Below, one piece after another: positions 1,039 through 10,998 of a stretch of 11,026 bases of DNA; positions within the stretch are counted from its first letter, which is position 1, and each line of letters opens with the position of its first letter. The translations under genes and the position numbers were made by a program. The stretch lies in the IMG/VR virus record IMGVR_UViG_2690316285_000015. One strand, 5' to 3'. Source of the DNA: a virus. Taxonomy: Duplodnaviria > Heunggongvirae > Uroviricota > Caudoviricetes. A model generated the notes under the pieces. That model was not told the origin of the DNA. It worked only from the letters and a program-made list of their open reading frames with translations, and ran no database searches.

Positions 1039-1333
1039 AAGCTAATGAGAATTTATGGTCTTGTAGAATGAATTATGCGAGTTAATATTTGAACAATATA
1101 TCTACGATGTCGAAATCTAACGGCATTGTAGATAGAGCAATAAAAGAGGGATTATGAATTTTGGATATAACTACGCACCCGATGGGTTTAAGATTTTCGT
1201 GCAAAATACAGCAAATCATTTATATCAGCGTGTGTTAGAATAGTCAAGGGTAAAATTAACTTTTTTGACTTTTCAACGTTAAACCAGTACCATAGCGTCA
1301 TTCATTAACGAATAGGAGCGATGAAACCATGAG

Positions 1334-1735
1334 ATGAATTCTAAAGAGAGGATTGCCAAAATGCGTAAGAAAGAAAATAAAGCAAAAAAAGAAAAATTCC
1401 GTCAATTTTTCCCTGAGAATTATGATATTGGGATCTCATTGAATGAAGAGAATCAATTAAGGCTTTTTTCAAAGCGGAATGATTCTCAAGATGAGAGCTT
1501 ATGCAAGTACGAATTTTCCAACAAAATTAAAGTTCAGTACATTTTTTTGCCGTATTCTTCTGAAATTCAAGTTATAACAGATGAGTTTCCGCTAACGGAG
1601 GCAGGCTGTCAGGAGTGTACTCAAGCTTTCAAACATCCAATATCAATGGAACTAATTGAAGAGATAAAAGAAGCAAAATGTTCAGTTACTGGACTTGTCA
1701 TTTATTCGAAACCTATACTAAAACTTATTAGCTAA
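1334..1735 (+). CDS. Hypothetical protein (133 aa; start could instead be ATG 1364)
   Basis: Open frame with lysine-rich N-terminus; GAGAGGA lies about 10 nt upstream of the alternative ATG at 1364; no recognisable domain. Confidence 0.4.
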   Translation: MNSKERIAKMRKKENKAKKEKFRQFFPENYDIGISLNEENQLRLFSKRNDSQDESLCKYEFSNKIKVQYIFLPYSSEIQVITDEFPLTEAGCQECTQAFKHPISMELIEEIKEAKCSVTGLVIYSKPILKLIS

Positions 1736-1811
1736 CACATCCAAATTGTTACGTTTTAAGTACTCCCTCACTAAATACTATAAAGTTGAATGTGAATGGG
1801 GGTACTTCAAA

Positions 1812-1985
1812 ATGGAATGGTTTACTAAATTACTTTACGAGATAGTAGGCTTTGTACTTTACATCTTTCTGATAATCCCAATATATATAGTGCTCATGTT
1901 TTTATCTATGATTTTAGTACTATTGCTTTCCCCATTAAAAATCAAATCGATAAATAAATACGTAGTAAGAAAAATGAAACGCTAA
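1812..1985 (+). CDS. Small hydrophobic membrane protein (57 aa from internal ATG; the ORF-track start at 1746 is TTG)
   Basis: GGGGG 9 nt upstream of ATG 1812; single long hydrophobic segment LYEIVGFVLYIFLIIPIYIVLMFLSMILVLLL followed by a basic tail; rho-independent terminator downstream. Confidence 0.4.
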   Translation: MEWFTKLLYEIVGFVLYIFLIIPIYIVLMFLSMILVLLLSPLKIKSINKYVVRKMKR

Positions 1986-2096
1986 AAGTTTTGGTGCTAT
2001 ACTAATAGTATCAGAACGATAATGCGTTTTGCCTTCCGCTCCAGCTTTGAACATAAATAATATAGCGACAATAAATTTCCTTTTTAATTAAGATTG

Positions 2097-2124
2097 CCTC
2101 TCTTGCGAGAGAGGTATCTTTTTA
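2097..2124 (+). terminator. Rho-independent terminator candidate
   Basis: Perfect 7-bp stem CCTCTCT / AGAGAGG (2097-2103 and 2108-2114) with 4-nt loop TGCG, followed by TATCTTTTTA. Confidence 0.55.
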
Positions 2125-2173
2125 ATTTGGATTTATAAATACAGTATACAAATACACCTATAAGGATATAGAA

Positions 2174-2359
2174 ATGAAAAAAGTAACTTTAAAGGAACGC
2201 AAACATCATGTAGTAACCGCACGTCTTAATGACGATCAAGTACTTGTACTTAACCAGCTAATTAGTAGTGGGAAGGTACAGAAAGATTCATTATCAGCCT
2301 GTGTTCAGTACTTAATTAATCAGTACATGATTTTACAGGGCGGTGGTAATGAAGAATGA
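2174..2359 (+). CDS. Small ribbon-helix-helix-like DNA-binding protein (CopG/MobC-like pattern)
   Basis: AAGGA 8 nt upstream of ATG; HHVVTARLNDDQVLVLNQLISSGKVQKDSLSACVQYLI fits beta-strand / helix / SLS-helix layout of RHH proteins; ends at TGA. Confidence 0.5.
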   Translation: MKKVTLKERKHHVVTARLNDDQVLVLNQLISSGKVQKDSLSACVQYLINQYMILQGGGNEE

Positions 2360-2651
2360 CTTTGATTTAGTACAATATTTTGATGATTACACAATAGTAG
2401 GGGATATGGATTATCACTATTTCTATTGTGTGAAGTATCAGGAAGGTTCATTAGAAGCACATTATGAACGAATTGGTGATCCAGAAGTATTAGGTACTAT
2501 TACATGGAATGGAAATTACCTAATCGACGGATTACCAATGGTAATGTTTGTACTGGCTGCTGAAGATGAACATAAGGAATGTTTAAACCGTTTGCTAATC
2601 GTATGTGAGAAGGCGAGGGATGAATATAGGCTAAATGCTACTGGCCTCTAA
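2349..2651 (+). CDS. Hypothetical protein (about 100 aa) overlapping the 3' end of the upstream RHH-like gene
   Basis: In-frame ATG at 2349 (ORF track starts at GTG 2343); overlaps the preceding gene by about 10 nt, suggesting translational coupling; no recognisable domain. Confidence 0.45.
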   Translation: MKNDFDLVQYFDDYTIVGDMDYHYFYCVKYQEGSLEAHYERIGDPEVLGTITWNGNYLIDGLPMVMFVLAAEDEHKECLNRLLIVCEKARDEYRLNATGL

Positions 2652-2705
2652 GTAGTAGCAGACGCGATCACATGGAGTGACGCGATAACAACAAGGACGT
2701 TTGAT

Positions 2706-8910: not shown

Positions 8911-8932
8911 AGGGCAAGTACTAAAGAAATGT

Positions 8933-8967
8933 GTATTTGATGAAGGGTAAGTACTTTCATCAAATAC
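8933..8967 (+). terminator. 12-bp stem hairpin 22 nt after the membrane protein gene stop (possible terminator or processing site; no U-tract)
   Basis: GTATTTGATGAA (8933-8944) / TTCATCAAATAC (8956-8967) with 11-nt loop GGGTAAGTACT that contains AGTACT and GGTAAGTAC. Confidence 0.3.
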
Positions 8968-9249
8968 GCAACAAATTACAAGGTGAGCATTTCATCACAA
9001 TTGTTTTAATTAACGATATTTTAAATTATTTTACGTAATTGAAACAAAATCAGCCATATCGCTTGTTAATTGGTATTGAGACTTTGTAGGTGTTATCATG
9101 CAATTAAATCATTTGCATTGGTATCTCTTATGGAAAAATTGATATTGCTATTATTATTACCTTTAACAACAAGTGCAGCTATTCCAGACTTTAAATGCTG
9201 GGATATTCATAACGATTCATTTAGTACTGACATGAGTTTCTACGTTACA

Positions 9250-9475
9250 AGATATCTCGAACCGTAATTATATCCATCATCAAATGCTTCATTGGTTATT
9301 ACCAGTTCCCTGTAAAATTTCTNNNNNNNNNNNNNNNNNNNAGATATCTCGGTAAAATGCCGCCGCCTTATGGTGCATTTCATTATGAAACAGCACCTGA
9401 TGAGAAATTTTACAGGGAACTGGTAATAACCAATGAAGCATTTGATGATGGATATAATTACGGTTCGAGATATCT
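9250..9475. repeat. 73-bp perfect inverted repeat flanking an assembly gap
   Basis: Left arm 9250-9322 is the exact reverse complement of right arm 9403-9475; between them lie the N run and 61 bp of unique sequence (9342-9402). The palindromic octamer AGATATCT occurs at 9250, 9342 and 9468. Confidence 0.7.
9323..9341. other. Assembly gap (19 N)
   Basis: Run of n characters; true length and content unknown. Confidence 0.95.
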
Positions 9476-9669
9476 AAACAAAGAAGGAACTTTGTACGAT
9501 GATATTAAATGTAAGCGGCTTTGATACTCATGATTCATTGTATATAGCTTACAAAGTATATTAACCATTGCATTCAATGGGTCCCTCCATACTGGCGGTA
9601 CTATCGAGGGTTTTCGGCAGCGGGTTTAATCAATTGTGTGTGAACAAAATGATCATACCCGCACCGCAT

Positions 9670-10232
9670 TTAAAAAAGTACCACACCAATTTCATTAAAT
9701 TCACATTGGCAATTATATCTTACTGGACACTCGCATAATTTAAACACGGCGTAAGAGCCTTTAAGTTCTTCAGTTACGTACTTTTCCATAAACTCGATAT
9801 CATCTGGTTCACAAAAAAGATGAAATCCGACACCAAGATAATTACGCATTTTGTAGTTACACTGTCTTATAGCACTAATTTTATTTTTGTCAGCATTTAA
9901 GCCCCTAACTAATGGTACTACACCTTTAGTACATTTAAACTCAATAAAAATATAATCATCAGAGGGTGTGGATTTTTCACGCAGTATCAAATCTACTTTA
10001 GCAAGTTTACTATCAGGATAATCTATTGGATCGAGGTATATCGTAACTTCACGATGTAGCTCGTACTTCCTTTTTGAAGTTAGATAATGAGCAAATTCTA
10101 TTTGCAGCCACTTTTCCCAATCATTAGTTTCTTTTTTCACGAAAGAATATAGTCTTTTTTTTATCTCATCTTTCTTCAAAAATCCGTTCAGCAATTTTAC
10201 TAACAGAGAAAAATCATTGTTACGGTCTGACA
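9670..10232 (-). CDS. Putative PD-(D/E)xK-fold nuclease-like protein (187 aa from ATG at 10232; the ORF-track start at 10290 lacks an RBS)
   Basis: Spacing E46 ([13 protein letters not shown]) ... D81 (KVDLIL) ... E98-F-K100 (YIFIEFKC) fits the helix-E / beta-D / beta-ExK layout of restriction-endonuclease-like folds; AGGG upstream of ATG 10232; divergent from the small terminase gene with a 36-bp gap. Confidence 0.5.
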
Positions 10233-10268
10233 TTGTAAACCCTATAAATAAAATAAAAAGGAACAAAT

Positions 10269-10814
10269 ATGGATATCTCATTAAGGTCATTAGCGAGACA
10301 GTACGGATACGATGAATCTACAGTTCGAACTTGGGTAGAAAAGGGAATGCCGACAGACACTGATTCAAACGCAAGAAGTTGGATTGTAGATAATGTACTA
10401 AAGCCGTTGCGTGATACTAATACAAAAGAACAAATTGAACAAGAGCGTTTGAAGAAGCTTTCAGCAGAACGGCAGTTAGCAGAATTAGAATTAGCAGAAA
10501 AGAATGGGCTGGTGGTCAGTACTGAATATATAGAACAGGTACTAACGGAATATCTATTCCAGGTCAAAACAGCAGTGCGTGCAATACCATCAAAAACTTA
10601 TCTTGAATTATTTGCACAATCAGATGCAAAGGATTTACGCGATGTATTAAGAACGCATATTGATAAAACATTATACCAATTAGGCTCAATGGAATTTGAG
10701 TTACCCGATGACATGGAAGTAATAGAGGATGGAAACAAACAAGAAGAAATTAACGAGGATACTGAAGAAAGTACTACCGACGATACAACCGCCGAAGATA
10801 CAGAAAACGAGTGA
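10269..10814 (+). CDS. Terminase small subunit, lambda Nu1-like
   Basis: N-terminal [25 protein letters not shown] parallels the lambda Nu1 HTH region (QLADIFGASIRTIQNWQEQGMPV); coiled-coil middle; strongly acidic C-terminus; 181 aa, the same length as Nu1; AAGGAA 7 nt upstream; large terminase start follows. Confidence 0.7.
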
Positions 10815-10998
10815 GTGGATTAGTAATGGTGTAGTTAAATTTGTGGACGGGCCGAATATGGGCCTTGATTGGGTTCCGTTTAGTTTCCAAAAAGAACCAA
10901 TGGATATAGCTCAAGAGCGAAGTACTAAAAAGATTGTACTTCAATCTTGTTCCCAGCTTTTGAAAACTACAGTACTACAATCAATTGCATTTAACTGA
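10729..10998 (+). CDS. Terminase large subunit (gpA-like), N-terminal fragment; frame interrupted by in-frame TGA at 10996-10998
   Basis: TSEWISNG...[15 protein letters not shown]...KKIVLQS parallels the lambda gpA N-terminus (TAVEWADANYY...WETLPFQRAIMNAM...VVKSA). After the TGA the +1 frame continues [10 protein letters not shown], which still resembles gpA (EHKQRNTLIWLP). Confidence 0.5.

Follow-up and report, generated by a model that had tools for sequence, protein, structure and literature searches.

Introduction

Defence hotspots are a known feature of temperate phages and satellites, the closest described examples being the old/tin and fun/Z positions of P2 and the hotspot of P4, which are fixed, core-flanked positions with a high turnover of genes. 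Prophage-borne defence systems have been recovered by functional selection in Escherichia coli (PMC9519451), and diversity hotspots have been described in phage genomes (bioRxiv 10.1101/2024.10.15.618418). Here, we analyse an 11,026-nucleotide stretch of viral DNA (IMG/VR record IMGVR_UViG_2690316285_000015; hereafter the window), which is best explained as the left arm of a prophage that is defective, fixed in Shigella sonnei, and located beside yeaG. Like the P2 and P4 hotspots, this arm has fixed positions flanked by core genes and a high turnover of content. We propose that it is probably a prophage hotspot for defence and moron genes, in which a conserved phage arm is combined with two exchange slots that hold defence candidates.

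A conserved arm with two exchange slots

The window belongs to a family of ~35-kb Enterobacterales elements that combine a serine integrase with a Nu1/gpA terminase, their genes being ordered as serine integrase (int), left arm, Nu1/gpA terminase, lambda-type portal, protease-capsid fusion, tail, and lysis. The same architecture is found in elements of E. coli, Buttiauxella, Scandinavium, Citrobacter, and Kluyvera, in metagenomes, and in 80 IMG/VR contigs of 30-38 kb. One E. coli relative, integrated in ybhA, is complete at 35.6 kb (strain ESBLEC_MG48, NZ_CM132639.1, ~3122400-3158000; our loci L009 and L013). At its right end, this relative encodes a complete ybhA-like pyridoxal phosphatase, which apparently compensates for the split gene. 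Among 50,697 phage records, none matched the gene for the small terminase subunit (terS), and portal identity did not exceed 29%; nor did these records yield homologues that would assign the genes of the arm to the structural or replication functions of a known phage family. The element family is previously undescribed and is widespread in Enterobacterales.

Open reading frames (ORFs) upstream of terS were called in 88 loci and then clustered. From the 5' end, the consensus order on the plus strand is int, an optional g79, g61, and either the HNH_3 endonuclease gene or a gene for 178 amino acids (aa). This position is followed by a 465-aa ResIII-like gene, a 650-aa gene, a 160-aa gene, or the block g153-HNH_247-g157, and then by variable genes. 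The 3' part consists of g222 (1-4 tandem copies) and g103, both on the minus strand, the EAL-like and lipoprotein genes on the plus strand, variable and mostly minus-strand genes, and finally PD187 on the minus strand and terS on the plus strand. The int-terS interval holds 229 gene clusters, 153 of them present in two or fewer of the 88 loci, and its fixed position between conserved core genes (int and g61 on one side, terS on the other) was confirmed.

The backbone is formed by g79, g61, HNH_3, g103, the EAL-like gene, and the lipoprotein gene, which are mostly on the plus strand and positionally conserved. The other content is best explained by two exchange slots, one in the middle of the arm and one directly upstream of, and divergent from, terS. 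Slot contents have baseline composition and often lie on the minus strand. In the window, on this explanation, g153-HNH_247-g157 and g222 occupy the middle slot, and PD187 the one next to terS. These features are as follows, matches being given with their E-values.

1746-1985, plus strand: g79, small single-pass membrane protein, backbone; one transmembrane segment
2174-2359, plus strand: g61, small basic protein, backbone; homologues just 3' of int in 6 of 6 close relatives
2706-3260, plus strand: HNH_3/NUMOD4 homing-type endonuclease, backbone; Pfam HNH_3 9e-13, phrog_59 2.1e-28
3382-3843, plus strand: g153, hypothetical protein; accompanies HNH_247 in 5 loci, 93.7% nucleotide identity to L022
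3844-4306, no strand: 463-bp spacer upstream of HNH_247, in the exchanged block; 91.4% identical to L022
4307-5050, plus strand: HNH_247, stand-alone McrA-like HNH nuclease, cargo candidate; Pfam HNH 3.3e-6, EcoKMcrA (6ghc) 3.4e-5
5133-5606, plus strand: g157, N-terminally anchored membrane protein, cargo-type; transmembrane segment 13-31, no family matches
5863-6531, minus strand: g222, protein with an N-terminal transmembrane segment, cargo-type; hydropathy, no Pfam domain
6664-6975, minus strand: g103, divergent from the EAL-like gene, backbone; phrog_2100 (function unknown) 4.8e-9
7168-7719, plus strand: EAL-like protein of 183 aa, backbone moron; PDB 5hxg 4.6e-25 in two stretches
7725-8087, plus strand: lipo120, predicted lipoprotein (signal peptide ending LSTG|C), backbone; sequence inspection
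9670-10233, minus strand: PD187, orphan PD-(D/E)xK nuclease, cargo-type; fold and catalytic motif
10269-10814, plus strand: terS, small terminase subunit (Nu1-like); phrog_57 1.3e-22, Pfam Phage_Nu1 7.6e-5 (below cut-off)

The interval from the recombinase remnant to terS contains 16 ORFs in total (13 on the plus and 3 on the minus strand), in keeping with the 15 or more short genes on both strands reported by the initial annotation. The three nuclease-type proteins that it named (HNH_3, the McrA-like HNH protein, and the PD-(D/E)xK protein) all hold. Its count of at least six membrane, lipo- or secreted proteins becomes seven (g79, g157, g222, lipo120, g89, g146, and g100), as judged by inspection of hydropathy and lipoboxes, a crude approach compared with a dedicated predictor.

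Known defence genes and exchanged blocks in relatives

The slots of relatives contain known defence genes. In the E. coli relative, the PD187 slot is occupied by a P2 Old-type nuclease (PADLOC 4.7e-75), and PADLOC also identified DRT2 (2.9e-205), JukA (4.7e-72), UzuA (2.1e-53), the candidates PDC-S15, S29, S31, and M45, and a methyl-directed type II restriction endonuclease (REase; mREase_II, 1.5e-62), which in several loci directly follows HNH_247.

Comparison of relatives, which the initial annotation had recommended for finding gene blocks that move as units, revealed such a block. The g153-spacer-HNH_247 segment is 91-94% identical in nucleotide sequence to that of a Citrobacter koseri element (L022) whose terS protein is only 36% identical; conversely, a Buttiauxella element has a 98% identical terS but an HNH_247 with just 73% identity. 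Blocks thus move between elements independently of the packaging genes and the terS phylogeny.

A second line of evidence is compositional. The window contains the hexamer AGTACT 33 times against 3.0 +/- 1.9 expected, AAGTAC 44 times against 6.9, and GTAC 105 times against ~34. The enrichment, ~10-fold for AGTACT and ~3-fold for GTAC, recurs in the related loci (L002, L009, L010, L012, L014-L016, L021-L102). Every relative shows it across its int, left-arm, head, and tail genes, and AGTACT reaches 10-fold over first-order expectation in 755 kb of structural DNA (terS and downstream; 80 relatives, L023-L102). The enrichment is absent from host flanks, insertion sequence (IS) elements, a neighbouring lambdoid prophage, and known defence cargo. 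The GTAC ratio of observed to expected counts is mostly 2-5 in backbone and structural genes (1.5-6.1 per gene; 2.4-4.9 for pooled conserved clusters), against 0.2 in Old, 0.0 in DRT2, 0.8 in JukA, and 0.9 in a DUF3800 gene. Among slot genes, it is 0.4-2.2 for HNH_247 and, pooled over loci, 1.12 for g222 and 1.18 for PD187; the PD187 copy of this window alone stands at ~2.9. By this marker, the recently acquired DNA of the window is mainly 4307-6531 (HNH_247, g157, and g222), together with g146 and, on its pooled value, PD187, and the block of the EAL-like gene, the lipoprotein gene, and g89 has long been resident, its higher G+C content notwithstanding. Avoided palindromes (see below) were considered as a second marker of cargo, but their rarity across the whole window gives them no discriminating power.

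HNH_247 and its block

HNH_247 matches the PADLOC model mREase_IV (4.7e-7) and ScoMcrA (0.003), its McrA alignment spanning the C-terminal 90 residues. A McrA-type beta-beta-alpha-Me HNH domain with a Cys4 zinc site was confirmed there, with C171, C174, H193, H194, C217, N219, C220, and H225 invariant. The N-terminal domain is conserved, beta-rich, and aromatic-rich, with a tryptophan-rich surface. It has no Pfam match, and its structural similarity to SRA readers is weak and, like that to the N-terminal domain of EcoKMcrA, not significant by Foldseek, so that we leave its fold unassigned. The family has more than 900 full-length homologues in Proteobacteria and beyond, and is mostly chromosomal and in defence-island contexts. 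Homologues elsewhere adjoin Gabija-like genes and GmrSD_N, or an Abi_2 fragment; within the element family, HNH_247 occurs in 14 of the 88 loci. Pfam and NCBIfam scans found no methyltransferase domain in any ORF of the window. We regard HNH_247 as a candidate type IV modification-dependent restriction enzyme and a candidate cargo gene. Its closest counterpart is EcoKMcrA of the e14 prophage, likewise prophage-borne, methylase-less, stand-alone, ~250-290 aa long, and equipped with a C-terminal Cys4 HNH domain. The SRA-HNH enzymes TagI and ScoMcrA are also comparable, the N-terminal domain of HNH_247 being at best weakly similar in structure to SRA readers; this domain is the part in which it differs from all of these enzymes (comparison enzymes: PMC6182155, PMC6212794).

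In some relatives, a homologue of HNH_247 directly precedes a DUF6998/methyl-directed type II REase-like gene (L016 12988-14577; L033, L038), which places two candidates for modification-dependent nucleases side by side.

The order g153-HNH_247-g157 is shared by the window, L022, L025, L061, and L069. The membrane protein gene g157 occurs in 7 loci, with a GTAC ratio of about 1.1-1.5 (1.07 in the survey). PDB sequence searches with g153, g157, g222, and g103 gave nothing significant. The 463-bp spacer was considered as a non-coding RNA and rejected, as it is no more conserved than the flanking genes, has fold z-scores of -1.7 and -0.9, and has no Rfam match. An obligate pairing of HNH_247 with g222 was likewise rejected, each occurring without the other.

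PD187 and g222

PD187 is divergent from terS across a 35-bp gap. A restriction-endonuclease-like alpha/beta fold was confirmed, the nearest folds being CinB and the type II REases SwaI and BglI, and the catalytic residues E46, D81, E98, and K100 are invariant in 8 sequences with identities down to 52%; a C-terminal cysteine cluster has the form CxCx5CxC. The gene neighbours terS and the gene for a secreted 100-aa protein, and unlike type II REases it has no methyltransferase partner in the window, so that it does not qualify as part of a type II restriction-modification system. PD187 is present in 49 of the 88 loci; in the other 39, Old or unrelated genes take its place. A search of 5.8 billion proteins through a word index, an approach that may overlook distant relatives, returned 7 homologue clusters, and all homologues that were traced to a locus belong to this element family and are divergent from terS. 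PD187 shares its minus-strand slot with the Old-family ATPase-Toprim nuclease of the E. coli relative, but differs from it in being a 187-aa PD-(D/E)xK protein with a Cys4 cluster and neither ATPase nor Toprim domain.

g222 is found in 48 of the 88 loci as 80 copies, all on the minus strand, in tandem arrays of 1-4 at a fixed position. It is restricted to Enterobacterales, with 42 homologue clusters; one UniRef record carries the label 'Phage abortive infection protein', which could not be reproduced. A 76% identical homologue with ~100 bp of conserved flanks lies outside any prophage in Kosakonia (L020 9001-9669), among PAAR-toxin and Tlde1 effector genes. This location makes an immunity-type role against membrane-acting toxins an alternative for g222, and there are hints that the gene is immunity-like or cassette-like in nature.

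If these genes act in defence, the lysogen would express the slot genes from their own promoters, and the host would thereby be protected against other phages. HNH_247 would work as a dimer in the manner of type IV enzymes, with the N-terminal domain reading a modified base and the McrA-type HNH domain cutting. PD187, being methylase-less, would be modification-, structure- or trigger-dependent, and g222 and g157 might act at the membrane by exclusion or abortive infection. The EAL-like moron may repress FlhD4C2-dependent flagellar synthesis and is probably idle in non-motile Shigella. The step from occupying a defence slot to defending is one that we infer.

Backbone genes

HNH_3 combines its catalytic domain with a NUMOD module, as expected of a free-standing homing endonuclease: it matches the PADLOC model HEase (1e-18), and NUMOD4 scores 0.0037 here, below the Pfam cut-off, and is called in L015. 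It occurs in 22 of the 88 loci, alternating with the unrelated 178-aa gene. The low identity between relatives (~33%) and native composition (GTAC ratio 2.8) fit long residence.

The EAL-like protein is clearly homologous over both halves (E 4.6e-25) to STM1697 of Salmonella, which, like YdiV of E. coli, is an EAL-like anti-FlhD4C2 factor. It differs from STM1697 in being phage-borne, in its length (183 against 235 aa, with ~50 fewer central residues), and in being followed by a conserved lipoprotein gene. It also matches NCBIfam PdeH (2.7e-5, below cut-off), occurs in 35 of the 88 loci, and has a GTAC ratio of 3.7. STM1697 blocks the recruitment of RNA polymerase by FlhD4C2 (PMC5622320). The EAL-like protein might exclude flagellotropic phages by shutting off flagella. 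Together with the lipoprotein gene, it forms a conserved module of the family (window 7168-8087, L010, L012, L016, and at least 30 IMG/VR loci).

Among the other backbone genes, lipo120 (30 of 88 loci; GTAC ratio 4.1), g103 (40 of 88; 3.5), and g79 (homologues at the matching position in relatives; 4.9 pooled) carry the native signature. g61 has the top GTAC density of the window (26.9 per kb). To judge from its sequence, it is probably ribbon-helix-helix-like and DNA-binding, and it is a candidate regulator or recombination directionality factor; it has no sequence match in the PDB.

Origin and state of the prophage

Between its two IS ends, the window matches chromosomal loci in several S. 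sonnei assemblies at 99.9-100% identity; in these, yeaG/yeaH adjoin the matching region and the IS insertions differ from strain to strain. The encoded proteins carry S. sonnei names in public records, and a second E. coli element occupies the same yeaG site. The ends of the window and its further genes are as follows.

1-41, no strand: IS2 terminal inverted repeat; 97.6-100% match to IS2 ends in phage and E. coli records
42-1038, plus strand: large serine recombinase pseudogene, C-terminal ~330 codons; Zn_ribbon_recom, phrog_95
1334-1735, plus strand: g133, hypothetical protein; no Pfam, PHROG or NCBIfam match
2343-2651, plus strand: g102, acidic hypothetical protein; no family matches
8095-8364, plus strand: g89, small protein with N-terminal signal or anchor; hydrophobic segment 1-19
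8470-8910, plus strand: g146, polytopic membrane protein with 3-4 transmembrane segments; hydropathy
9130-9524, plus strand: g100, secreted 100-aa protein; split here by the artefact at 9260-9341
9260-9341, no strand: scaffolding artefact of 82 bp, an inverted copy of 9403-9475 plus 22 N; absent from 7 covering S. sonnei loci
10729-10992, plus strand: N-terminus of the gpA-type large terminase (terL), ~88 codons, cut by IS911; GpA_ATPase 8.2e-4
10993-11026, no strand: end of IS911 (IS3 family); 100% match to IS911 in phage Sf6 records

The recombinase and terminase ends that the initial annotation recognised are indeed phage core functions, and both are fragments. The integrase (Pfam Zn_ribbon_recom 5.4e-9; phrog_95 integrase 1.5e-14) is truncated by an IS2 whose body lies to the left of the window and which removed the N-terminal 234 codons. 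A 235-bp internal deletion, whose junctions were mapped, causes a frameshift and a stop. Other S. sonnei loci have an intact 644-aa recombinase with Resolvase, Recombinase, and Zn_ribbon_recom domains beside yeaG; relative to S. sonnei locus L002 (5547-5781), the deletion sits between two similar internal repeats of the protein. At the other end, the remaining 486 aa of terL follow the IS3-family insertion in S. sonnei genomes, and a lambda-type portal gene comes next. The terL fragment has 90-98% aa identity to close relatives and 44% to the distant C. koseri element. terS is present in 87 of the 88 loci. A lambda-type packaging module was confirmed, GpA_ATPase, GpA_nuclease, and Phage_portal_2 lying downstream of the Nu1-like terS in S. 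sonnei and relatives.

Elsewhere in the region, other S. sonnei strains have IS1 or IS21 insertions, and a widespread variant has the EAL-like gene split by IS21 (L002, L003, L005, L007). Because int and terL are disrupted and further IS insertions occur in other strains, the element is a decaying, defective, IS-riddled prophage, and not a satellite, as the initial annotation had allowed.

Of the remaining genes, g133 has no homologue in the relatives examined and is unclustered in the survey. Most of the 16 ORFs do have homologues in relatives. g89 and g146 co-occur in the window, L022, L027, and L048; g146 is present in 9 loci and has 74% aa identity in the C. koseri element. g100 is intact elsewhere as a 303-bp gene with a signal peptide (L006 14824-15126).

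The repeats, hairpins, and distinct promoters described initially did not stand. The only long repeat consists of 73-nucleotide inverted arms (9250-9322 and 9403-9475; 100% complementary) around 22 N. The segment 9260-9341 is missing from all 7 S. sonnei loci that span this part of the window and is therefore a scaffolding artefact, on which ground a reading of 9250-9475 as a hairpin or an invertible segment was rejected; the remaining repeat-like signal is dispersed AGTACT. Sigma-70-like sites number 26 against 40.6 +/- 6.4 in shuffled sequences, and terminator-like sites are at chance (8 against 6.0 +/- 2.4). The only convincing terminator-like hairpins, stem-loops followed by T-runs, lie at 3262-3289 (after HNH_3) and 2095-2116 (after g79). 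No RNA gene was found in the window (no Rfam match at E <= 1, and no tRNA or tmRNA).

The AGTACT signature

The AGTACT enrichment is robust, and we found neither an explanation nor, in full-text literature searches, an earlier report of it. Individual GTAC sites persist between diverged relatives at about twice the rate of the median tetramer. A codon-usage artefact was rejected, the excess being present in all three reading frames and in intergenic DNA, with z of 6-7 after synonymous shuffling. SlmA-type sites, which we take to be GTGAGTACTCAC, do not account for it: GAGTACTC is among the rarest flank contexts, with 66 occurrences against 834 for CAGTACTG. No helical or periodic spacing was found, and a drive resembling VSP repair (GTAT to GTAC) was rejected because GTAT/ATAC is just mildly low (0.80-0.91), like GTAA/TTAC.

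The same DNA avoids many palindromes, a breadth that is unusual for a temperate element. In the 755 kb of structural DNA, GCGC stands at 0.07-0.10 of expectation (the window has none), GGGCCC and CGCGCG are absent, and ~25 palindromic hexamers are depleted 5-50-fold, among them GAGCTC, GCATGC, CTCGAG, CTGCAG, GGATCC, GGTACC, and CGTACG.

One option, which we regard as rather unlikely, is that AGTACT density is a self-identity code read by a factor of the element, in which case PD187 and g222 would be new defence families. The reader could be the universally conserved g61, the HNH_3/NUMOD4 protein, or one of the orphan nucleases, for instance PD187. By silencing, protecting, nicking or packaging DNA rich in AGTACT, it could tell the element from host or rival DNA; self/non-self marking by motif density would be undescribed for prophages.

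Weighing the interpretations

Several points weigh against the interpretation of the arm as a hotspot for defence genes. The window holds no complete known multi-gene defence system, and its PADLOC defence matches are single-domain and weak (best 4.7e-7), the database being the 2023 version. Our survey of the 88 loci is crude, being built on longest ORFs and single-linkage BLAST clustering. PD187 and g222, widespread at fixed positions, may act for the benefit of the element. Promoter-like sites do not exceed chance, which leaves independent expression of the slot genes unsupported, and the prophage is defective.

It is unlikely that the interval is instead mainly the early arm of the element, devoted to regulation, replication, and recombination, with nucleases that serve the element rather than the protection of the lysogen. 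On this view, HNH_3 or PD187 would contribute to DNA processing or to terminase action, and the target of HNH_247 in lytic growth would be the DNA of the host or of competitors. In HK97-like phages, cos cleavage is indeed assisted by HNH endonucleases that adjoin the terminase, and PD187 lies beside terS in more than half of the loci. Furthermore, PHROG and Pfam searches identified no repressor or replication gene in the relatives, including the complete 35.6-kb E. coli element, whose uncharacterised genes gave just a holin-like match and families of unknown function. Replication and immunity functions must therefore be encoded by some of the unrecognised genes, probably those of the int-terS arm or near the right end. 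However, PD187 is missing from 39 loci, lies on the strand opposite to the late operon, and lacks the composition signature, and the scarcity of HNH_247 in the element family, along with its mostly chromosomal, defence-island distribution elsewhere, also argues against a role in the element's own cycle.

We find it quite unlikely that the whole 9 kb is a single accessory island for defence or superinfection exclusion with no element-essential genes, which is how the region was first read. The interval has no recognisable replication, repressor or lysis gene, and its content is highly variable across relatives. Against this, g61 is present in all six close relatives, the other backbone genes (g79, HNH_3, g103, EAL-like, and lipoprotein) are fixed in place with an AGTACT/GTAC signature like that of capsid and tail genes, and the 465-aa ResIII-like and 650-aa genes that follow g61 in most relatives carry the native signature and may be core functions. 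What stands of the island is thus the slots, filled with known defence genes in relatives; the backbone is interleaved with them and is not cargo.

A further reading, that the prophage is dead and its genes are relics without a present role in S. sonnei, is most improbable: the disrupted int and terL, the IS1 and IS21 insertions in other strains (one splitting the EAL-like gene), and an anti-FlhDC factor left without a target because Shigella is non-motile speak for it, but all 16 ORFs are intact in the window, identical across S. sonnei genomes, and 100% conserved in hundreds of contigs, which is weak evidence because S. sonnei is clonal.

Defence and moron hotspot thus remains the interpretation that we favour, and it has practical consequences. 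S. sonnei is a clonal pathogen and a target of phage typing and phage therapy, and its acceptance of phages and plasmids could be shaped by a fixed remnant with a McrA-like nuclease and an orphan nuclease of restriction fold. As a site of defence-gene exchange, the int-terS arm of the family yields a list of new defence-gene candidates, namely PD187, g222, g157, the N-terminal domain of HNH_247, and many rare clusters. AGTACT/GTAC density is a simple marker of resident as opposed to recently acquired genes in this element family, and the cause of the enrichment is a testable question.

Comparison with known hotspots

As in known prophage defence hotspots, the same slot holds Old, DRT2, Uzume, JukA or methyl-directed REases in different relatives. 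In contrast to them, the slots here are interleaved with backbone genes, and the commonest occupants, PD187 and g222, are not in PADLOC. The slot contents of the window are single-gene nuclease and membrane-protein candidates rather than a known multi-gene system. The carrier is likewise distinct, combining a serine integrase, a Nu1/gpA terminase, and distal tail genes resembling those of gene transfer agents, with no sequenced phage relative. Thus, the kind of locus is already known, as the defence hotspots of temperate phages, and what carries it is an uncharacterised element family.

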